Assembly: GCF_988243305.1 (NCBI RefSeq) | Contig: NZ_OZ547136.1 | Strand: one strand, 5' to 3' | Length of the DNA: 64,000 bases | In this document: positions 3,852 to 55,792 of the stretch, piece by piece | Layout: the number at the start of each line of letters is the position of its first letter | Numbering within the stretch: position 1 is the first letter of the stretch | Translations under genes and position numbers: made by a program | The notes under the pieces: model-generated | What the model was told of the DNA's origin: nothing | Databases searched by the model: none | The model's input: the letters and a program-made list of their open reading frames with translations, nothing else

Positions 3852-5108
3852 TTAATGTGTAACTGAACGATGCGTTATCTTTTCAGGGTCATGGTTATAT
3901 TTAAACCCAAAGAAAAATATCACTGCGAGGAAAAGAGCATACCCTGCAAACATCAGCCAAATGGTATGCCAGTCTTTTACGCCATCCACCGAAAAGTAAT
4001 CTACTGCCATGCCACTCAGAATCGAGCCAACCCATGCGCCGACACCATTTACCATGGTCATAAAGAGCCCCTGCGCGCTGGCACGAATGCTGGAATCAAC
4101 TTCCTGTTCGACAAATACCGAACCAGAAATATTGAAGAAATCGAATGCACAGCCATAAACAATCATCGACAGCAGCAGCAAAATAAATCCGGTTGTTGAC
4201 GGATCGCCATAGGCGAAGAAGCCAAAGCGCAGCGTCCACGCCACCATACTCATCAGCATGACGGTTTTAATACCGAAACGCTTCAAAAAGAACGGTATCG
4301 TCAGAATGAAACCGACTTCAGCCATCTGTGAAACTGACAGTAAAATGGACGGGTATTTCACCACGAAGCTATCAGCAAACTCAGGATTACGGGCGAAATC
4401 ATGCAGGAACGGGTTGCCAAAAACGTTGGTAATTTGCAGCACCGCGCCCAGCATCATGGCGAAGAGGAAAAAGATAGCCATGCGTGGATTTTTAAACAGC
4501 ACGAAGGCATCCAGACCCAGCTTGCTGGCAAGCGATGTAGTCGCTTTTTTCTCCGCAACCGGAATCTTCGGCAAAGTCAGCGCATAAGCCGACAGCAGCA
4601 ATGACGCACCGGACGCGATATACAGCTGCAGACTACTCAATTCCAGATGCAGCAGGCTTACTGCCCACATGGCGACAATGAACCCCACCGTACCAAAAAC
4701 GCGAATGGGCGGGAAAGCGGTCACCGGGTCAAGCCCTGCCTGGGCAAGACAGGAATAAGAGACGCTGTTCGATAACGCAATAGTCGGCATAAACGCCATC
4801 GCATTGACTAACATCACCCAAAACATCATATCCGGATCAGTTACGGATGCCGCATAAAAAAGTACGCCTGCACACACCAGGTGACACAGCATGTATGCAC
4901 GTTCTGCACGCAGCCATTTGTCTGCGATGATCCCCATTATACCAGGCATAATAATCGCGGCGATCCCTTTGGAACTGTAAACCATGCCAACATTAGCGCC
5001 GGTGAAATGAAGGGTATTAATCATGTAAGAACCGAGGGTAACCAGCCAGCTCCCCCAGATAAAATATTGCAAAAAGGACATTACCTTTAAGCGCAAAGCG
5101 ATGCTCAT
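3852..5108 (-). CDS. xapB: Xanthosine permease (MFS nucleoside:H+ symporter family)
   Basis: 418-aa polytopic membrane ORF upstream of xapR and downstream of xapA; recognised as XapB. Confidence 0.95.
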   Translation of the reverse strand: MSIALRLKVMSFLQYFIWGSWLVTLGSYMINTLHFTGANVGMVYSSKGIAAIIMPGIMGIIADKWLRAERAYMLCHLVCAGVLFYAASVTDPDMMFWVMLVNAMAFMPTIALSNSVSYSCLAQAGLDPVTAFPPIRVFGTVGFIVAMWAVSLLHLELSSLQLYIASGASLLLSAYALTLPKIPVAEKKATTSLASKLGLDAFVLFKNPRMAIFFLFAMMLGAVLQITNVFGNPFLHDFARNPEFADSFVVKYPSILLSVSQMAEVGFILTIPFFLKRFGIKTVMLMSMVAWTLRFGFFAYGDPSTTGFILLLLSMIVYGCAFDFFNISGSVFVEQEVDSSIRASAQGLFMTMVNGVGAWVGSILSGMAVDYFSVDGVKDWHTIWLMFAGYALFLAVIFFFGFKYNHDPEKITHRSVTH

Positions 5109-37161: not shown

Positions 37162-38523
37162 TCAGAAGAACAGTGACGGATCGCCCGCCCGTTTGGTCAG
37201 GCGACCGTTTGCCATAATGCCCATGCTTTCCAGCCAGCGTTCAAACTCCGGTGACGGGCGCAGGTTGAGTAACTGACGCACAGTGGCAGTGTCGTGGAAT
37301 GCGGTGGTCTGATAGTTGAGCATGATGTCATCGCCCAGCGGCATCCCCATGATGTAGTTGCAGCCTGCGGTGGCGAGCAGGATCATGAGGTTTTCGTTGA
37401 GGTTCTGGTCAGCGTCAGCGTGGTTGGTGTAGCAGCAGTCACAGCCCATAGAGATGCCGCTCAGCTTACCCATAAAGTGATCTTCTAAGCCCGCACGGAT
37501 AATCTGGCGGTCGTTGTAGAGATACTCCGGCCCAATAAAGCCGACCACGGTGTTGACGATAAACGGATCGTAATGACGCGCCAGCCCGTAGTTACGCGCT
37601 TCCATCGTCACCTGGTCTGCGCCGAAGTTAGCGCCAGCAGACAGCGCCGAACCTTGTCCGGTTTCGAAGTAGAGGCAGTTTTCCCCGGCGATACGGTTGA
37701 ACTCCGCGCCCACTGCGCGCGCTTCGTCGAGCATCGCCAGTTCCACGCCAAACTCTTTCAGCCCTTTTTCGCTGCCGCAGATACTCTGGAAAATCAGTCC
37801 GCCAGGCGCGCCGCGACGAATTGCTTCAATCTGGGTGGTGACGTGCGCCAGCACGCAGCCCTGGGTCGGAATGTTGTATTTGTCGATCACGCCATAGATG
37901 GTGTCCAACACGCGGCTTAAGTTTTCCACGTCGTCAGTCACCGGGTTAACGCCGATCACCGCATCGCCCACCCCGAAAGAAAGCCCTTCGTAGATTTGCG
38001 CGGCGATACTTTGCACGTCGTCACGGGTGTCGTTTGGCTGCAAGCGGGCGCTGAAGGTGCCCGGAATACCGATGGTGGTATTGGCCTTTTTGATCACCGG
38101 CATTTTCTTCGCGCCGTAGATCAGGTCCGCGTTGGAGCAAATCTTCGCTACCGCCGCGACCACTTCCGAGGTCAACCCTTTGCGGGTAAAGGCAATGTCG
38201 TCAACGCTGGTTTCGTCGCTCAGGACGTATTCACGCAGTTCGCTGATGCTCCAGTTTTTAATCTGGTTGTAGGCCGTTTCGTTAACGTCGTCCTGAATCA
38301 GCCGCGTCACGCAGTCATCTTCATAAGCAATCACCGGATTATTGCGGATGTCCGCTACGGTCATTTCCGACAACACCTGCTTTGCCGCCACGCGCTCCTG
38401 TGAGCTTGCCGCTGCGACGCCCGCCAGCACATCCCCCGAACGCAGTTCGTTGGCTTTAGCCAGCACCTCTTTTACATCCTTAAACTGATATACATTGCCG
38501 AACAATGTGGTCTTTAGTTTCAT
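37162..38523 (-). CDS. eutB: Ethanolamine ammonia-lyase large subunit
   Basis: 453 aa MKLKTTLFGNVYQFKDVKEVLAKANELRSGD... Confidence 0.96.
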   Translation of the reverse strand: MKLKTTLFGNVYQFKDVKEVLAKANELRSGDVLAGVAAASSQERVAAKQVLSEMTVADIRNNPVIAYEDDCVTRLIQDDVNETAYNQIKNWSISELREYVLSDETSVDDIAFTRKGLTSEVVAAVAKICSNADLIYGAKKMPVIKKANTTIGIPGTFSARLQPNDTRDDVQSIAAQIYEGLSFGVGDAVIGVNPVTDDVENLSRVLDTIYGVIDKYNIPTQGCVLAHVTTQIEAIRRGAPGGLIFQSICGSEKGLKEFGVELAMLDEARAVGAEFNRIAGENCLYFETGQGSALSAGANFGADQVTMEARNYGLARHYDPFIVNTVVGFIGPEYLYNDRQIIRAGLEDHFMGKLSGISMGCDCCYTNHADADQNLNENLMILLATAGCNYIMGMPLGDDIMLNYQTTAFHDTATVRQLLNLRPSPEFERWLESMGIMANGRLTKRAGDPSLFF

Positions 38524-38534
38524 AAGTCGTTCCC

Positions 38535-39938
38535 TCAGGAAGGAAATGCGAGTGATTTCACCGTCACCGGCACAACCGATCCGCCAAAAAGAGGCGTACC
38601 AATGTCGATATAGTCCCCCGCGCGGACAATCACTTCGTCAATGACTGCCAACGGGAGTTGTTGTAGCTGTGGGCGCAACAACATGCCCAGAGCTTTACCA
38701 AAGTCCTGCCCGGCCACCACCAGCAGGGGATGCGGATTCGGAAAACGCGCGACGAAATCGACCAGCGCGTTGATGACCGTCAGTACCGCGGCGTAACGCA
38801 CAGGCAGCGAGGCGGGAAGCGCCAGCACGTACGCGTCAGAATTGGGATCAAGATCCAGCTGAATCAGCGCCTGTTGCCAGGCACTCACCAGATCCGTTTC
38901 ATCAATTGGGATCGCCACCGGCAAATTGCGCAGCGGCAGTTGTACGCCCTCCAGCCAGATTGTGCTGCCAGAGAGCGAAAGGGTATGTGCACCCGCGCCA
39001 ATCACCGTGGCGCGTACGGTTTGCGCCGGAAACTGCACGTTCATCTCACGCAGGCGCGGATGGTCATGCAGCGCCGTTGCCAGAAGCGGGCCAATATCGG
39101 CAAAACAGAACGGGTCGGCGGGCTGGTGGCGATAACATTCGCCCACGCCGCCAGAAAGCGTAATGATTTCGGGCGTAACACCTGCGGGCAGCAAACCGGT
39201 TTGCATCAATGCCTGCGCGAGCGGCGAGAGCGTTCCGTCAATCACTTCGACAATCAGCTCTGCCATCCGCCGGGTAACCTGCACCAGCTGCGCGCCGGTC
39301 AGCGAACGGGCGTCGGTGCCTGCGCCGAAGCACTCATCCACAATCATCTGCCCCGGTTTATGAGCGTAAACCACGCGCCCCTGGCTGTCGGTTTCCAGCA
39401 GGCGACCACCGACGTTGAGGCAGGCAGTGCCGCTGATTTTTCCGGCATCGAACAGGGCGTAGTTCGCGGTGCCACCGCCGATGTCGATATTCAGTACCCG
39501 ACACAGCCGTTGTTCAGAAAGGGTTTGCGCCCCGGCACCGTGACCGGCGATCACGGATTCGAGATGCGGCCCGGCGCTGGCGACGACAAAATCGCCCAGC
39601 GACTGGGAGAGCGTCATCACCGCCGGGCGAGCGTTGCGGGTTTTCGCGCTTTCACCGGTGATGATGATGGCACCAGAATCAACGCTTTCCGGCGCAATGC
39701 CCGCAGCCTGATATTGCTCGAGGATTAAGGTTTTCAGTTCCGCTTCTTTTAAACCACCCTGTTTATCGACAGGGGTAAAGAACACCGGGCTTTGCCAGCT
39801 AATTTCGCGTTTGATGAATTCGTAGCGCGGCACCTGCGACACCGCCGCACGGTTAACCAGCTCCAGGTGGGAGAAGATCACTTGGGTGGTGGTGGTGCCG
39901 ATATCGATACCGACGCTCAGTAGCTGGCGAGTGTTCAC
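38535..39938 (-). CDS. eutA: Ethanolamine ammonia-lyase reactivase
   Basis: 467 aa; 11-bp spacer to eutB. Confidence 0.95.
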   Translation of the reverse strand: MNTRQLLSVGIDIGTTTTQVIFSHLELVNRAAVSQVPRYEFIKREISWQSPVFFTPVDKQGGLKEAELKTLILEQYQAAGIAPESVDSGAIIITGESAKTRNARPAVMTLSQSLGDFVVASAGPHLESVIAGHGAGAQTLSEQRLCRVLNIDIGGGTANYALFDAGKISGTACLNVGGRLLETDSQGRVVYAHKPGQMIVDECFGAGTDARSLTGAQLVQVTRRMAELIVEVIDGTLSPLAQALMQTGLLPAGVTPEIITLSGGVGECYRHQPADPFCFADIGPLLATALHDHPRLREMNVQFPAQTVRATVIGAGAHTLSLSGSTIWLEGVQLPLRNLPVAIPIDETDLVSAWQQALIQLDLDPNSDAYVLALPASLPVRYAAVLTVINALVDFVARFPNPHPLLVVAGQDFGKALGMLLRPQLQQLPLAVIDEVIVRAGDYIDIGTPLFGGSVVPVTVKSLAFPS

Positions 39939-41161
39939 GATTGTGCCTCCGCTTCGGTTTTGGCCGCGGTCGCGTCTTCTTTTGGCACCAGCATCATCGC
40001 CACGCCAATCGCCGTTACGCCGCCGATCAACTTGCCGACAATCATCGGGAAAATCATGGCGTTCATGTTGGCAGCGGCGAAGCCTAAGTGGTCACCCAGG
40101 GCGAAAGCAGCGGAAACGGCGAAGGCGCAGTTGATGACTTTGCCGCGGGTATCCATCTGCTTCATCATGCCAAACATTGGGATGTTGTTGGCAAGCGTTG
40201 CCACCATGCCAGCTGCCGCGATATTGTTCATATTCAGCACTTTACCGACGCTCATCAGCGGTTTTTCAAACCAGCGGGTCAGCAGCAATACCATCGGGTA
40301 CGCCCCTAACAGAACACAGGAGATAGAACCGATAACTTCAATGGCGCGCATCACTTCACCGGGTTTATCGCCAGGGGCCATAAAGATAGGATCCAGACCG
40401 GGGATCAGTTCCCAGCCAAGGAGGAATTTCACTACCGCGGCAGCAAGACCGAGGGTGATCAATGCAACGAGGAATTTGGCGAAGATCTGGAAGCCGTTGA
40501 TCATTTTTTCCGGGATGAATTTCAGCCCCAGCGCCACCAGCACCGCAACGATAAGTACCGGGATCATGTTCATCAGGATCAGCGCAAAGGTGAATTCCAC
40601 CGGCTGACCGTTGATCTGCACACCGGAGTACATAGCAACCAGACCACCAGCAATACAGCCAATCGGAATGGTCACAATGCCCGCCAGCACGCCGAGCGCC
40701 AGATAACGACGGTCAGAAGGTTCGATAATGCCGAGCGCCACCGGAATGGAAAACACAATCGTTGGCCCCATCATCGACCCGAGAATTAACCCAGAGTATA
40801 GCCACGCTGCTACGTCGCCGCCCGCCAGCTCTTTGGCGAGGAAGAAGCCGCCCATATCGCACGCCAGCAGTGTTCCGGCGAACATCGATGGGTTAGCGCC
40901 GAGCATTTCGTAAACCGGGATAATCACCGGTCCGAGTACGTGGGCCAGAACAGGTGCCAGCGCGGTCATACCAACCATCGCCAGGCCCAGTGCGCCCATT
41001 GCCATAAAGCCTTCTTCGAACTGCCCGCCGGATCCTTCGATACTTTTACCGAACTTACCGAGGAAACGAGCAGAACCGCCGAACTGCGACAGGATCCTGT
41101 CTACGGCAGCTATCAGCATAAAGAACATCATGATGTACATGATGATTTCGTTAATTCCCAT
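39935..41161 (-). CDS. eutH: Ethanolamine permease
   Basis: 408-aa polytopic membrane ORF. Confidence 0.95.
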   Translation of the reverse strand: MGINEIIMYIMMFFMLIAAVDRILSQFGGSARFLGKFGKSIEGSGGQFEEGFMAMGALGLAMVGMTALAPVLAHVLGPVIIPVYEMLGANPSMFAGTLLACDMGGFFLAKELAGGDVAAWLYSGLILGSMMGPTIVFSIPVALGIIEPSDRRYLALGVLAGIVTIPIGCIAGGLVAMYSGVQINGQPVEFTFALILMNMIPVLIVAVLVALGLKFIPEKMINGFQIFAKFLVALITLGLAAAVVKFLLGWELIPGLDPIFMAPGDKPGEVMRAIEVIGSISCVLLGAYPMVLLLTRWFEKPLMSVGKVLNMNNIAAAGMVATLANNIPMFGMMKQMDTRGKVINCAFAVSAAFALGDHLGFAAANMNAMIFPMIVGKLIGGVTAIGVAMMLVPKEDATAAKTEAEAQS

Positions 41162-41277
41162 CGCCTTTACTCCCTGTTAGTTGTTATTTATTGCCAATGC
41201 TGAAAGTGGGTTTTTCCCTCACTCTGGAAGCCGAGGGGCCGGGGTGAGGGTAATTGTTTGCACCGGCGCGACTCTGT

Positions 41278-41328
41278 TCCCCTCACCCTAACCCTCTCCC
41301 CAAAGGGGCGAGGGGACTGTCCGTACAC
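41278..41328. repeat. GC-rich dispersed intergenic repeat, copy 1 (between eutG and eutH)
   Basis: tcccctcaccctaaccctctccccaaaggggcgaggggactgtccgtac; near-identical copy at 54671-54720; partial inverted copies (gggtgaggg / ccctcactc) at about 41215-41255. Confidence 0.8.
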
Positions 41329-41330
41329 TT

Positions 41331-42518
41331 TTATTGCGCCGCTGCGTACAGGCCGACAATCTGCTCCAGGCTGGCGGTACGCGGGTTGCTGCGCAGACAA
41401 ATATCTTCCAGCGCGGCCTGCGCCCATGCACCGTAATGCGCAGATGTCGCACCAATATCGCCCAGTCGTTTACCAATCCCGACTTCCGCAATCAGCTCAC
41501 TTACCGCGTTAATAGCGTCACGATCGTCGGATTTTTTAGTTCGCAGCGCCCGACCAATCTGACTAAAGCGTTCACGACAAACCATCCGGTTAAATTCCAT
41601 CACCGTTGGCAGCAACATGGCGTTCGCCAGACCGTGCGGAATATGCAGCGCCGCCCCTGGCTGATGCGCCATCGCGTGGCACAACCCAAGCCCCGCACTG
41701 GAAAACGCCATTCCCGCCATACATGAAGCCAGCAACATGCTCTCGCGGGCGGCAAGGTCGTGACCGTAGCCCACCGCTTTCGGCAGTGATTTACCAATCA
41801 TCGCGATTGCGCCAATCGCCAGGCTGTCGGTAAACGGTGTAGCGTTCAGCGCGCTGTACGCTTCAATAGCATGGGTTAACGCATCAATGCCGGTCATCGC
41901 CGTGACATGCGACGGCACGCCTTCGGTCAGCGCAGCGTCGAGAATCGCCACATCCGGCATCAGCGAGGCGTGGGCTAACACCTGCTTGCGCCCGCTCACA
42001 GCGTCGATAATCACCGTTACGTTGGTGGTTTCAGAGCCGGTTCCGGCGGTCGTTGGAATGGCAACCAACGGCAGGCGCGGTTGCAGAATGCTGGTTTCTG
42101 ACATTTCTGCCAGCGTGCTATCGGGATTCGTCACCAGCAACGCCACGGCTTTTGCTGCATCCAGCACCGAGCCGCCGCCAAACGCAATCACCCCGTCACA
42201 GCCTGATTCACGCAACTGCGCCACGGCTGCACACACGTCGGTGATGCACGGTTCGCCCACCGGACATGGCCAGAGCGTCATGGCGATACCTTTAACGGCC
42301 AGGCTACGCGTCAGCCCGGCGGTCATCCCCGCCTGATGCAAAAAGCTGTCTGCCATCACGAACAGATGTTTCAGCCCACGCGTTTGCGCTTGCTGCCCGC
42401 AACTGCTCACCGCGCCCGGACCGCAAAGCGTCACCGGTGGAACGCTAAATGTTTTTACCCGTTGCAGATTCAGGGTATCGAACGCCTGAAAGAGCGCGGC
42501 CTGCAATTCATTTTGCAT
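41331..42518 (-). CDS. eutG: Iron-containing alcohol dehydrogenase
   Basis: 395 aa, Fe-ADH family. Confidence 0.95.
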   Translation of the reverse strand: MQNELQAALFQAFDTLNLQRVKTFSVPPVTLCGPGAVSSCGQQAQTRGLKHLFVMADSFLHQAGMTAGLTRSLAVKGIAMTLWPCPVGEPCITDVCAAVAQLRESGCDGVIAFGGGSVLDAAKAVALLVTNPDSTLAEMSETSILQPRLPLVAIPTTAGTGSETTNVTVIIDAVSGRKQVLAHASLMPDVAILDAALTEGVPSHVTAMTGIDALTHAIEAYSALNATPFTDSLAIGAIAMIGKSLPKAVGYGHDLAARESMLLASCMAGMAFSSAGLGLCHAMAHQPGAALHIPHGLANAMLLPTVMEFNRMVCRERFSQIGRALRTKKSDDRDAINAVSELIAEVGIGKRLGDIGATSAHYGAWAQAALEDICLRSNPRTASLEQIVGLYAAAQ

Positions 42519-43354: not shown

Positions 43355-44758
43355 TTAAACAATGCGAAACGCATCGACTAATACACAGCGACGCAGACGG
43401 ACAAACGTCCGCGCGCTGGTTACCCCTTCACCGGTTGGCGTGGTGATGGTCATGGTGGTCCAGCCTTCCCCGCCCAGCCCCAGCCCGGCAATGCACGGTC
43501 CGTTCTTAACGAAAATGCTGGTATCAATGGCATTCGCCATCTGGTTCATGTTCTCGATATTGCGCGAGTGCATTGCCGCCGTGTGGTGGCAACCGCCTTC
43601 CAGTTTCACCGCCAGCGCAATGGCATCCGCCACGTTGGCAACGCGCACGACGGGCAGCACCGGCATCATCAGTTCAGTCACAGCAAACGGATGTTCTGCG
43701 GTGGTTTCTACAAACAGCAGTCGCGTTTGTTCCGGAACTTTAAGGCCGATTGCCGCCGCGATTTTCGCCGCATCACGACCAACCCAGTCACGGCTGACGG
43801 TGCCTTTTCCGCGCTCGTCGATATTTTTCAGCAACACCGGTTGCAGCTGCTGCGCCTGCTCTGCGGTCAGTTTCACCGCGTGCTGGCCTTCCATCAGACG
43901 CATCAGTTCATCGGCTACGCTATCCACAACAATCAGTACCTTTTCGTCGGCACAAATGATGTTGTTATCGAAAGACGCGCCTTTGACGATGGACTGAGCA
44001 GCACGGGCGAGGTCAGCGGTTTCATCCACCACTACCGGCGGGTTGCCAGCGCCTGCGGCAATCAGACGTTTATTGGTGTGTTTACGCGCCGCTTCTACTA
44101 CCGCTTCGCCGCCGGTCACCACCAGCAGGCCGATGCCCGGAAACTTGAACAAACGTTGTGCGGTTTCGATATCCGGATTGGCCACAGTAACCAGTAAGTT
44201 TTCCGGCCCGCCTGCGGCAACAATCGCCTGGTTGAGCAGCGTGATCGCCCGCTGGGAGACTTTTTTCGCCGCCGGATGCGGGGCAAAAATGACGCTGTTG
44301 CCCGCGGCAATCAGGCTGATGGCGTTGTTAATTACGGTTGCCGCCGGGTTGGTGGACGGAGTTACCGAAGCCACCACGCCCCAGGGCGCGTTTTCAATTA
44401 AAGTCAGGCCGTTGTCGCCCGTCAGCACTTGCGGAGAGAGACACTCAACGCCTGGCGTGCCGCGTGCCTGAGCGACGTTTTTGGCAAATTTATCTTCGAC
44501 GCGCCCCATGCCGGTTTCACTGACGGCAAGTTCCGCTAAATCTCTGGCGTGTTTTTCGCCTGCTTCACGAATGGCAGCAATGGCTAACTGGCGCATTGCC
44601 ACGCTCTTTAACCCTTGCTGGGCAATTTTGGCTGCCGCAACGGCGTCATCCAGGGACGCGAAAACGCCCATCTCATGAACGGCGGCGGGCGGCGTATCAC
44701 TGCTTTGCATTTTCAGCAGTACCGCTTTCACCACCTGTTCAATATCCTGTTGATTCAT
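43355..44758 (-). CDS. eutE: CoA-acylating acetaldehyde dehydrogenase
   Basis: 467 aa aldehyde dehydrogenase family. Confidence 0.95.
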   Translation of the reverse strand: MNQQDIEQVVKAVLLKMQSSDTPPAAVHEMGVFASLDDAVAAAKIAQQGLKSVAMRQLAIAAIREAGEKHARDLAELAVSETGMGRVEDKFAKNVAQARGTPGVECLSPQVLTGDNGLTLIENAPWGVVASVTPSTNPAATVINNAISLIAAGNSVIFAPHPAAKKVSQRAITLLNQAIVAAGGPENLLVTVANPDIETAQRLFKFPGIGLLVVTGGEAVVEAARKHTNKRLIAAGAGNPPVVVDETADLARAAQSIVKGASFDNNIICADEKVLIVVDSVADELMRLMEGQHAVKLTAEQAQQLQPVLLKNIDERGKGTVSRDWVGRDAAKIAAAIGLKVPEQTRLLFVETTAEHPFAVTELMMPVLPVVRVANVADAIALAVKLEGGCHHTAAMHSRNIENMNQMANAIDTSIFVKNGPCIAGLGLGGEGWTTMTITTPTGEGVTSARTFVRLRRCVLVDAFRIV

Positions 44759-52642: not shown

Positions 52643-54646
52643 ATGTCCCGAAAAGACCTTGCCAATGCGATTCGCGCACTCAGTATGGATGCGGTACAAA
52701 AAGCCAATTCTGGTCATCCCGGCGCGCCGATGGGCATGGCTGATATTGCCGAAGTGCTGTGGAACGATTTTCTTAAACATAACCCCACCGACCCAACCTG
52801 GTATGATCGCGACCGCTTTATTCTTTCCAACGGCCACGCGTCGATGCTGCTCTACAGTTTGCTACATCTGACCGGTTACGACCTGCCGCTGGAAGAACTG
52901 AAGAACTTCCGTCAGTTGCATTCAAAAACCCCAGGTCACCCGGAGATTGGCTATACGCCAGGTGTTGAAACCACCACCGGTCCACTTGGACAAGGTTTGG
53001 CGAACGCCGTCGGACTGGCGATAGCAGAGCGTACACTGGCGGCGCAGTTTAACCAGCCGGATCATGAAATTGTCGATCACTTCACCTATGTGTTTATGGG
53101 CGACGGTTGCCTGATGGAAGGTATTTCCCACGAAGTCTGTTCGCTGGCGGGCACGCTGGGACTGGGCAAGCTGATTGGTTTTTACGATCACAACGGTATT
53201 TCCATCGACGGTGAAACCGAAGGCTGGTTTACCGACGATACAGCAAAACGTTTTGAAGCCTATCACTGGCATGTGATCCATGAAATCGACGGTCACGATC
53301 CGCAGGCGGTGAAGAAAGCGATCCTTGAAGCGCAAAGCGTGAAAGATAAGCCGTCGCTGATTATCTGCCGCACAGTAATTGGCTTTGGTTCGCCGAATAA
53401 AGCAGGTAAGGAAGAGGCGCACGGCGCACCGCTGGGGGAAGAAGAAGTGGCGCTGGCACGGCAAAAACTGGGCTGGCACCATCCGCCATTTGAGATCCCT
53501 AAAGAGATTTATCACGCCTGGGATGCCCGCGAAAAAGGCGAAAAAGCGCAGCAGAGCTGGAATGAGAAGTTTGCCGCCTATAAAAAGGCCCATCCGCAAC
53601 TGGCAGAAGAGTTTACCCGTCGGATGAGCGGCGGTTTGCCGAAGGACTGGGAGAAAACGACTCAGAAATATATCAATGAATTACAGGCAAATCCGGCGAA
53701 AATCGCTACCCGTAAGGCTTCGCAAAATACGCTTAACGCTTACGGGCCGATGCTGCCTGAGTTGCTCGGCGGTTCGGCGGATCTGGCTCCCAGCAACCTG
53801 ACCATCTGGAAAGGTTCTGTTTCGCTGAAGGAAGATCCGGCGGGCAACTACATTCACTACGGGGTGCGTGAATTTGGCATGACCGCTATCGCCAACGGCA
53901 TCGCGCACCACGGCGGCTTTGTGCCGTATACCGCGACGTTCCTGATGTTTGTTGAATACGCCCGTAACGCCGCGCGGATGGCGGCACTGATGAAAGCGCG
54001 GCAGATTATGGTTTATACCCACGACTCAATTGGCCTGGGCGAAGATGGTCCTACGCACCAGGCTGTTGAGCAACTGGCCAGTCTGCGCTTAACGCCAAAT
54101 TTCAGCACCTGGCGACCGTGCGATCAGGTGGAAGCAGCGGTGGGCTGGAAGCTGGCCGTTGAGCGCCACAACGGACCGACGGCACTGATCCTCTCCAGGC
54201 AGAATCTGGCCCAGGTGGAACGTACGCCGGATCAGGTTAAAGAGATTGCTCGTGGCGGTTATGTACTGAAAGACAGCGGCGGTAAGCCAGATATTATTTT
54301 GATTGCCACCGGTTCAGAGATGGAAATCACCCTGCAAGCGGCAGAGAAATTAGCGGGAGAAGGTCGCAATGTACGCGTAGTTTCCCTGCCCTCGACCGAT
54401 ATTTTCGACGCCCAGGATGAGGAATATCGCGAGTCGGTGTTGCCTTCTAACGTTGCGGCTCGCGTGGCGGTGGAAGCAGGCATCGCCGATTACTGGTACA
54501 AATATGTTGGTCTGAAAGGGGCAATTGTCGGGATGACCGGCTATGGGGAATCTGCTCCGGCAGATAAGCTGTTCCCGTTCTTTGGCTTTACCGCCGAGAA
54601 TATTGTGGCAAAAGCGCATAAGGTGCTGGGAGTGAAAGGTGCCTGA
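52643..54646 (+). CDS. tktB: Transketolase 2
   Basis: 667 aa from [40 protein letters not shown]; TPP motif GDGCLMEG. Confidence 0.97.
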
Positions 54647-54670
54647 TGGTGATCGCCGGATGCTGTATGT

Positions 54671-54720
54671 TCCCCTCACCCTAACCCTCTCCCCAGAGGG
54701 GCGAGGGGACGGTCCGTGCG
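54671..54720. repeat. GC-rich dispersed intergenic repeat, copy 2 (between convergent tktB and ypfG)
   Basis: tcccctcaccctaaccctctccccagaggggcgaggggacggtccgtgc, about 94 percent identical to 41278-41328. Confidence 0.8.
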
Positions 54721-54748
54721 CTTTTTAGGGGCGCATCTGGGATTTTGT

Positions 54749-55792
54749 TTAACGGGTGATCCACAACGTGGGCCAGGCGTCTGGCCCATGCCAGTTATCA
54801 CAGGTGGGTTCTGCGGCGTAACGCACCAGGCGAAAACGCTGACCGTCAAAGCGCCAGCGCGCCTGAATGCCACAATCGCTTAATCCGCGCCCTTTTGCTA
54901 AGGTCACCAGTTCACGCGATTTTTCATCGAATGTTGCGTTCATCAGTTCCAGTTCATTCGTCTCCTGACCGCTGTTGAACGGCAAACGTAACCGAACCGG
55001 GCGCGAGGCCAGTGGCTTTTTACGCGACACAATCCAGGCCAAATCAATGGTGTTATAGGCCCCTGCCTCACAGCTAATCATCATCAGCGCTTTATCATCG
55101 GTCAGCGCAGTGACATTTACCTCTCGACGCAATGGATCAAGCGAGCAGCGCAGACCATTCATCCGCCAGTTTCCATAATCCAGCAAATCGTTGCGTTCTT
55201 CGAGTGAGAGTGGCGTCGGCGTTGGGTTAACCACCGCGACCTCTTTCAGCGCAGGCGCGGGCGGTACGCTGAGCGGCGGTTCGTCCCCTTTCTTGATCCA
55301 CGCGGTTTCACTGCCAACGCGCTTTTGCTGAGCATCAATAAACAACAACGCCGCTTTTAAGCCACTCAGAGAAATGGTCTGATTGCCGTCGCGTAAGGTG
55401 ATCGCCTTCCCTTCCTGAATCATCTGCAAAAACGCGGTGATGGTTGCCGTATCATCGGTTACTAATAACCATGGTGAAATCCGCCACTTGTCACCACTTA
55501 ACGCCAACGGCTCGCCATCTAACAGCAGCCGTGGCGCTATCTCCCCTTCAGACGCATCCGGCGACTTCAACCCGCCGCGCTCAATACGTAAAACGGCATC
55601 CGTATGCGCCCCGGCGCTGCGGCTCAGGGTCATCACCAGTCCGTTATGATCGCCCGTATTACGCGCCACGCAGAAGTTTTGGTTATTACAGGTGACCTGC
55701 CAGTCGGAAAACGCCCGTTGCGCTGGTGCCGCCCACACCAAAGACGTCGGCAACAAAGCGAAAAAAAAGAGAAGGAAAATGCGATAGCGCAT
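54749..55792 (-). CDS. ypfG: Secreted protein of unknown function
   Basis: 347 aa with signal peptide MRYRIFLLFFFALLPTSLVWA. Confidence 0.88.
   Translation of the reverse strand: MRYRIFLLFFFALLPTSLVWAAPAQRAFSDWQVTCNNQNFCVARNTGDHNGLVMTLSRSAGAHTDAVLRIERGGLKSPDASEGEIAPRLLLDGEPLALSGDKWRISPWLLVTDDTATITAFLQMIQEGKAITLRDGNQTISLSGLKAALLFIDAQQKRVGSETAWIKKGDEPPLSVPPAPALKEVAVVNPTPTPLSLEERNDLLDYGNWRMNGLRCSLDPLRREVNVTALTDDKALMMISCEAGAYNTIDLAWIVSRKKPLASRPVRLRLPFNSGQETNELELMNATFDEKSRELVTLAKGRGLSDCGIQARWRFDGQRFRLVRYAAEPTCDNWHGPDAWPTLWITR

Follow-up and report, generated by a model that had tools for sequence, protein, structure and literature searches.

The closest described match of the repeat considered here is an E. 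coli motif that has carried three names in turn: Box C (Bergler 1992, Bachellier et al. 1999), then PIT, for "potential intrastrand triplex" (Hoyne et al. 2000, Hoyne & Maher 2002), and then TMECO (Holder et al. 2015, NAR 43:10126, PMC4666352), a succession recorded in the last paper. The published TMECO pattern is 5'-CCCTCNCCC N3-6 GGGNGAGGG N3 GGGNGAGGG[G/T/C/-]-3' (PMC4666352). K-12 has 23 copies, all intergenic, and at five loci two copies are inverted relative to each other, always one of type A (TTA loop) and one of type B (CCG loop) (PMC4666352). TMECO loci vary more than control intergenic regions, have no association with transposons, phages or plasmids, and have been reported from Proteobacteria only (PMC4666352). 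A separate survey describes E. coli Box C as a 56-bp element with 32 copies. In vitro, an oligonucleotide of type "A mm" adopts a stable triplex fold with a Tm of about 74 C, shown by CD and NMR, the NMR giving a triplex and not a G-quadruplex (G4); purine-motif triplexes are not expected in RNA (PMC4666352). According to the same paper, triplex was detected neither in duplex DNA nor by in vivo DMS footprinting, and PIT elements blocked DNA polymerase in vitro only and did not block reverse transcriptase. Hoyne & Maher (2002), as summarized in PMC4666352, found that PIT elements neither acted as promoters or terminators nor influenced RNA polymerase.

We analyzed a repeat of this kind in a 64,000-nucleotide stretch of E. 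coli DNA (the window; NCBI RefSeq assembly GCF_988243305.1, contig NZ_OZ547136.1), in which the eut operon lies on the minus strand. The repeat occupies the 169-bp spacer (41162-41330) between eutG (41331-42518, minus strand, 395 aa) and eutH (39935-41161, minus strand, 408 aa). On the eutH side, the translation-initiation region (41162-41186, minus strand) has the same letters in every aligned allele; the 26 nt upstream of eutH are invariant across the aligned spacers, including a Shine-Dalgarno (SD) sequence, AGGGAG (41170-41175, minus strand), 8 nt before the ATG (41159-41161). Next to it begins a variable block bracketed by a direct repeat, TTTATTG(C), of 7-8 bp, with the left copy of TTTATTG at 41187-41193 and the right copy, which shares bases with the eutG stop codon (41331-41333, minus strand), at 41330-41336. 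Precise removal of the repeat block would bring AATAAATAAC up to that stop codon. Within the block we found three inverted repeats, namely GGGTGAGGGTAA (41242-41253) against TTCCCCTCACCC (41277-41288), 12 nt and 92% complementary; TTTCCCTCACTCTGG (41213-41227) against CCGGGGTGAGGGTAA (41239-41253); and 41278-41288 against 41306-41316. The eut operon is uninterrupted in the window at the eutB-eutA junction (37162-39938); in K-12 the cryptic prophage CPZ-55 is annotated beside eutA (record 2558691-2565480).

Applied to the window as a regular expression, the TMECO pattern matches only 41280-41314 and 54673-54707, both on the minus strand. The first match is the core of a 36-nt type-A element (41279-41314, minus strand; CCCTCGCCCC TTT GGGGAGAGGG TTA GGGTGAGGGG), which reads CCCTCGCCCCTTTGGGGAGAGGGTTAGGGTGAGGGG with its terminal G included, has the TTA second loop of type A and is letter-for-letter identical to K-12 TMECO nos 7, 11 and 15, listed as type "A mm" (Table 1, PMC4666352). 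Its G-rich strand is the sense strand of the eut mRNA. Because it both matches the pattern and is identical to K-12 copies, the eutG-eutH palindrome almost certainly belongs to Box C/PIT/TMECO, a dispersed repeat known since the 1990s. The original prediction had placed a GC-rich core inside this spacer, considered it unlike REP and guessed, with reservations, at a Box C-like family; the core lies where it was claimed, the GCCGGATG...CATCCGGC palindromes of REP are absent from the window spacer, and the guess was right. An Rfam covariance-model scan of the region returned no family, with best scores of 11-20 bits against gathering thresholds of 40-84. Family-conserved sequence continues beyond the core as a 5' extension (41315-41330, minus strand; AAAGTGTACGGACAGT in the mRNA sense) that reaches 41330 and abuts the eutG stop codon directly. 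The extension is kept as GGGGACnGnnnGnnCnCTTTT at the second copy in the window and at four K-12 doublets.

To place the remainder of the spacer, we retrieved the K-12 doublet loci and aligned them against it. A second arm (41216-41251, plus strand; CCCTCACTC TGGAA GCCGAGGGG CCG GGGTGAGGG T) aligns to the type-B arms of these doublets. In this arm the CCG loop and the third block are preserved, the first and second blocks (CCCTCACTC and GCCGAGGGG) are mutated, and block 1 now pairs with block 3. The strict TMECO expression has no match on the plus strand of the window, the second arm failing in blocks 1 and 2, and because the three-block pattern fails, we class this arm as a putative degenerate type-B arm and not as a full member of the family. 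The two arms are separated by a 27-nt linker (41252-41278; AATTGTTTGCACCGGCGCGACTCTGTT), compared to gaps of 26-27 nt at the K-12 doublets fepB-entC, ygfF-gcvP and alx-sstT, and the K-12 doublet linker TAATnTTCGCACCnnTGCnGGCCTGTT aligns with TAATTGTTTGCACCGGCGCGACTCTGTT in the window. The outer termini are likewise common to the window and the K-12 doublets: G..TTTTY before the B arm, with TTTTY-CCCTC shared by the K-12 doublets and the left segment of the window, and GGGGACnGnnnGnnCnCTTTT after the A arm. Since linker and outer termini match those of K-12, we read the spacer, from its sequence, as holding a standard inverted A+B doublet of about 125-136 bp and not a 50-bp core plus debris. 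The element is thus composite, as had been proposed. The "partial inverted copies" of the earlier description are real inverted repeats; they are not a local oddity, being the second, type-B-like arm of a doublet whose linker is conserved elsewhere. Assignment of the left terminal segment (41195-41215, plus strand; CAATGCTGAAAGTGGGTTTTT) is uncertain, as it may be the 5' extension of Box C, G..TTTTY, or in part the leftover of a replaced REP (GCCAATGCTG vs GCGGATGCTG); its similarity to REP was seen in an alignment with the REP allele, and its CTGAAA..TTTTT is found also at the lldD-trmL Box C locus. In addition, the unusual left-arm motif CCCTCACTCTGRAA (window 41216-41232) is found again at K-12 lldD-trmL, within the 59 nt that separate the paired Box C elements (1063-1121 of the locus record); it may mark a third sub-type or be a product of decay that arises repeatedly.

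The element is dispersed both in the window and across the species. The 169-bp spacer, used as a megablast query against 5426 complete E. coli genomes, matched 5424 of them, with a per-genome median of 7 places (range 1-14). This is the genome-wide copy search that the original prediction had called for, and it upholds membership in a GC-rich dispersed enterobacterial family over a core confined to two loci. In the window, a second type-A element (54672-54707, minus strand; CCCTCGCCCCTCTGGGGAGAGGGTTAGGGTGAGGGG), identical to K-12 nos 9, 16, 19 and 22, lies in the convergent tktB-ypfG spacer; both window copies are therefore intergenic, as in K-12. The eut locus is absent from the K-12 TMECO set, which has no member from 1.35 to 3.05 Mb. 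The genes eutG, eutH, tktB and ypfG are not named in the supplements of PMC4666352, and a literature search on eutG, eutH and REP together found nothing.

Alleles at eutG-eutH were surveyed in an evenly spaced sample of 60 complete E. coli genomes, 59 of which were scorable and one of which gave a partial match only. Three carried Box C. The other 56 scorable genomes all had REP arrays, in spacers of 99, 116, 216, 316, 416 or 516 bp: the 116-bp spacer holds one REP doublet, the longer ones two to five in 100-bp steps (216 bp and two doublets in K-12), and the 99-bp spacer of O157:H7 is a REP doublet with a deletion. One to five doublets were found in about 21, 24, 3, 1 and 3 genomes, respectively, and the O157 type in about 4. 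In most E. coli the spacer thus acts like a VNTR of REP doublets in 100-bp steps, with the 99-bp allele in addition. The suggested comparison of spacer lengths with strains lacking the element accordingly set 169 bp for Box C against 99-516 bp, with REP in its place. No empty site was seen in the 59 scorable genomes, each of which needed two BLAST pieces when compared to an artificial "empty" junction. In the full set of 5426 genomes, 303-305 (about 5.6%) carry the Box C allele, and about 284 of roughly 304 carriers are at least 99% identical over the spacer and flanks. A 67-nt query specific to the left arm recovered 305 of these genomes at 95% identity or more, with paralogues at only about 80%. 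The window itself is about 98.5% identical overall to strain 7/2, and 100% identical across the eutG-eutH spacer region. Its positions 1-332 match, at 98.8%, part of an IS200C-family element that in strain 7/2 lies beside yfeX, an insertion that the pbp4b-yfeX junction of the window does not have.

Outgroups, located through EutH homologues, give the direction of the change. The E. albertii spacer has a REP doublet that matches the 116-bp allele of E. coli, and palindromes of REP type also occur in this spacer in Salmonella and Klebsiella. Palindromes of the GCCGGATG...CATCCGGC type, about 35 nt long, are present in the alleles of K-12, O157, Z226-7, E. albertii and Salmonella. Because REP is found in the outgroups and in the other sampled E. 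coli, it is ancestral and Box C is a derived replacement; we consider it very probable that a Box C doublet replaced an ancestral REP doublet between unchanged flanks, as a lineage-restricted minority allele. A similar alternation is seen at the second window site, since the tktB-ypfG spacer (54620-54780) has the type-A element in the window and in CFT073 and REP in ATCC 8739 and strain A36, with shared flanks (GCCGGATGCTG... and ...ATTTTGTTTAAC). Repeats of this kind were known before, and the one mildly new aspect of the eutG-eutH doublet is its allelic relation to REP, there and at the neighboring tktB-ypfG spacer.

With the known family, the eut doublet shares the exact 36-nt type-A core, the TTA second loop, the intergenic and dispersed distribution, the inverted A+B arrangement, the 27-nt linker and the 5' extension. 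It differs in the degeneration of blocks 1 and 2 of its B arm and in filling a slot otherwise held by REP. With REP/PU/BIME elements, which form REPIN-like doublets, it has in common this slot, an inverted-doublet architecture, the predicted hairpin stability and co-transcription within an operon, and its linker TTGCACCGGCGCGACT resembles the BIME inter-doublet linker TTGCACC-GCGCCACT. In contrast, the arms are unrelated in sequence, the GCCGGATG...CATCCGGC palindrome is absent from the Box C doublet, and expansion by steps of 100 bp is a property of the REP arrays at eutG-eutH that the Box C doublet lacks. To our knowledge, Box C, unlike REP, has no cognate RAYT transposase. We considered whether the K-12 inter-REP linker is a relic of a Box C linker, given a 14/15 match that was reached in 0 of 500 shuffles. 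This idea was weakened when the inter-doublet linker, AATTGCACCGCGCCACTG, proved to be a BIME motif found genome-wide, at a median of 3 places in each genome, and present in O157, where it is missing from eut. A general alternation of REP and Box C was rejected, as the alternatives at alx-sstT and yjdP-phnP are deletions or an unrelated block. At alx-sstT, Box C is replaced by a 75-bp internal deletion or by an unrelated 370-bp block; at yjdP-phnP, the alternatives are deletions between CGCCCCT and CCCTCNC direct repeats; and at fabI-ycjD, the flank is replaced, so that this locus does not bear on the question. The unrelated block at alx-sstT, of about 370 bp, is carried by some E. coli, among them strain EE72d (150-520 of the locus record), where K-12 has a Box C doublet, and on it a TwoAYGGAY motif (RF01731) was scored below threshold at 251-416 (33 bits vs a gathering threshold of 43, E = 0.003).

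The Box C allele would have arrived by illegitimate or microhomology-mediated recombination between palindromic repeats, which we rate likelier than classical transposition. No identical donor of the left arm is present in the 5426 complete E. coli genomes, and a metagenome scan for this locus-unique arm brought up nothing beyond eut operons that resemble those of E. coli, with identities of 96-98%. In one metagenome contig (OBVC01002471.1; 1915-2200 of the locus record), the Box C doublet ends at ...AAAGGGGCG and is fused through a GGCG microhomology to a complete REP doublet. This hybrid junction is absent from all 5426 complete genomes, and the allele is either rare or an artefact. In a sub-lineage with strains M160133 and WB61, 26 substitutions, most of them synonymous, fall within the final 165 nt of eutG, beside the Box C doublet (4300-4515 of the M160133 locus record). 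This tract is 87.5% identical to every other E. coli, compared to 96-97% between E. coli and E. albertii, and the rest of their eut operon is 95-100% identical, which suggests that the tract may be a short mosaic import. A protein search with the EutG C-terminus of these strains returned only short E. coli fragments and no donor. The WB61 spacer, 115 bp long, looks like one whose doublet has lost 54 bp between GGGTGAGGG and GGGGCGAGGG; its junction contains NN (197-351 of the locus record), so that this allele may be an assembly problem. The deletion alleles at alx-sstT and yjdP-phnP run between short direct repeats of the element itself, and the WB61 allele has a like form. Together, the deletion alleles would fit the replication-slippage and instability picture of PMC4666352, with no sign of transposition in them.

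On the transcript, the doublet would be carried within the eutS-R mRNA, with the type-A arm in its G-rich sense. In mRNA order, the G-rich sense of the A arm precedes the C-rich sense of the B-like arm. The RNA is predicted to fold either into two local hairpins joined by a long-range GGGUGAGGG/CCCUCACCC helix or into a single long hairpin of -51.4 kcal/mol. This stability is large in absolute terms, although relative to shuffled sequences it is small (z = -1.3 to -1.6), because any sequence of such composition is expected to fold stably; for the 116-bp REP allele the predicted energy is -47.5 kcal/mol and z is -3.6. A scan of 41162-41330 on both strands found no intrinsic terminator and no sigma-70 promoter consensus. 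The doublet would thus neither terminate transcription nor cover the eutH ribosome-binding site, the last stem being 40 nt from the SD and the first 16 nt past the eutG stop codon. Any effect on the transcript would resemble that of the replaced REP doublet, as a barrier to 3'-exonucleases. The original prediction of a stable mRNA structure agrees with the computed fold, which is not exceptional for its composition, and its further proposal of an effect on decay or eutH translation went unsupported by the z-score, the motif scan, the distance to the SD and the published assays of PIT elements.

Several other explanations bear on what the element is and how it came to be here. A GC-rich palindrome formed by chance, or by duplication within this locus alone, would account for the local inverted repeats taken by themselves; this explanation has already been refuted, and its probability is practically nil, given the exact catalogued copies, the thousands of matches across genomes and the 22-mer CCCTCACCCTAACCCTCTCCCC, which occurs twice in the window (41280 and 54673) and in none of 100 dinucleotide-preserving shuffles (2 observed vs 0 expected). 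Another explanation is recent transposition of a MITE-like element into the spacer, whose terminal inverted repeats would be the TMECO arms and whose target-site duplication would be TTTATTG. Like ERIC/IRU, the Neisseria Correia/NEMIS elements and pneumococcal BOX/RUP, Box C is small, non-autonomous, palindromic, dispersed and often co-transcribed, and the eut copy is about 130 bp long, with its arms inverted and direct repeats of 7-8 bp on its flanks. However, TTTATTG is likewise found on both sides of REP alleles in E. coli and E. albertii; because they carry it, it is an ancestral flank that Box C did not create, and we rejected it as a target-site duplication. Box C further differs from MITEs in having no identifiable parent IS and in arms made of three 9-nt homopurine/homopyrimidine blocks, and the missing left-arm donor, the lack of association with mobile elements (PMC4666352), and presence/absence alleles at two other loci that are internal deletions, not clean excisions or target-site duplications, leave recent transposition very unlikely. 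An action at the DNA level is compatible with the replacement of REP by Box C: the G-rich strand, whose three-block mirror or inverted arrangement would permit a purine-motif triplex as in H-DNA, or an extruded cruciform, would stall polymerases and make the locus a hot spot for deletion and recombination. The "A mm" triplex, the in vitro polymerase block, the variability of TMECO loci, the 54-bp (WB61), 75-bp (alx-sstT) and yjdP-phnP deletions and the GGCG-joined hybrid of one metagenome contig all speak for it, and the folding could be transient, during replication or transcription. Against it are the absence of a triplex signal in duplex DNA and in vivo (PMC4666352), the high identity of most carriers (the allele is stable on such a timescale) and the NN in the WB61 junction, and we regard it as unlikely.

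The alternatives at the RNA level would give the doublet a function in eut. One interpretation is that a selected hairpin after the eutG stop codon, supplied interchangeably by REP or Box C, sets the ratio of eutS-G to eutH-R expression by blocking 3'-5' exonucleases, directing RNase cleavage or influencing translation termination and re-initiation. A palindromic block is present at exactly the same position in 59 of 59 scorable E. coli and in E. albertii, Salmonella and Klebsiella. Fold stability is also similar between a Box C doublet (-51 kcal/mol) and a single REP doublet (-47.5 kcal/mol). REP elements stabilize upstream mRNA, as at malE-malF, and Liang, Rudd and Deutscher are said to have found in 2015 that REPs near stop codons can lower upstream translation. 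On the other hand, REP copy number varies freely from 1 to 5, contrary to tight tuning; the stems lie 16 nt past the stop and 40 nt before the SD; and the block could persist simply because no mechanism excises it cleanly. The published assays of PIT/Box C elements also found no effect on termination or RNA polymerase. The selected hairpin is thus quite unlikely, even if the never-empty site in 60 sampled E. coli and three other genera could mean that a hairpin is selected there. The broader claim that the eutG-eutH junction, and perhaps other operon junctions, would need some strong palindromic RNA or DNA structure, for which the unrelated REP and Box C substitute, is more doubtful still. An RNA G-quadruplex formed by GGGGAGAGGGUUAGGGUGAGGGG (41279-41301, minus strand) and modulating mRNA decay or eutH translation is highly improbable. 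The G-rich, mRNA-sense strand does match the canonical G3+N1-7 x4 motif, a match in sequence only, but NMR of the DNA oligonucleotide shows a triplex, the G-tracts in the RNA are flanked on both sides by perfectly complementary C-tracts that favor hairpins, and the motif is 90 nt from the SD. Neither triplex nor G4 has been detected in vivo for Box C (PMC4666352). One other G-quadruplex-consensus motif occurs in the window, inside eut coding sequence (43468-43486, minus strand; GGGCTGGGGCTGGGCGGGG). Compared to these alternatives, we favor an inverted Box C doublet that is a derived replacement of REP with, most likely, no dedicated function in eut. When single-stranded, its G-rich DNA strand is able to form an intrastrand triplex in vitro, and loci of this kind are unusually prone to small deletions. 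We hold this reading as a whole to be quite probable, and the doublet is, judging from its sequence features, probably passive in the operon.

A pattern scan of genome contigs found the exact TMECO pattern in multiple copies in very distant lineages, compared to the Proteobacteria-only distribution reported previously (PMC4666352). Among the matches listed, a Polaromonas MAG has more than 30 copies, several in inverted pairs, and other carriers are a Verrucomicrobia MAG, Contendobacter, Hyphomicrobiales and one MAG with two subfamilies. An Archangium MAG and many further loci, also among the matches listed, share the core CCCTCTCCC-TCG-GGGAGAGGG-TCA. Throughout the listed matches, the 9-9-9 core is nearly invariant and the flanks are lineage-specific. 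The multi-copy presence of this core in very distant phyla suggests that it may have some selected property. An Armatimonadetes MAG has a variant, CCCTCCCCC-GCCTC-GGGGGAGGG-GCC-GGGGGAGGG, in two copies (704-738 and 35-69 of two locus records), in which the central position of the three blocks has changed together, to C/G/G from T/A/T. This change is what a G.G:C triad would need, a weak hint that comes from two copies only.

For annotation, the eutG-eutH palindrome can be labeled as a Box C/PIT/TMECO doublet and should not be flagged as a candidate regulator. The alleles at this one intra-operonic position, Box C or one to five REP doublets and never an empty site in our sample, form a natural series that could be used for testing how palindromes affect the fate of polycistronic mRNA. 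That both Box C copies in the window lie at REP sites of other strains, together with the hybrid allele, hints at exchange between repeat families. If the eutG-eutH junction does need a strong palindromic structure that either family can supply, which we consider quite unlikely, the swaps from REP to Box C at both window sites and the GGCG hybrid would document the spread of Box C by microhomology-mediated replacement of REP and not by transposition.
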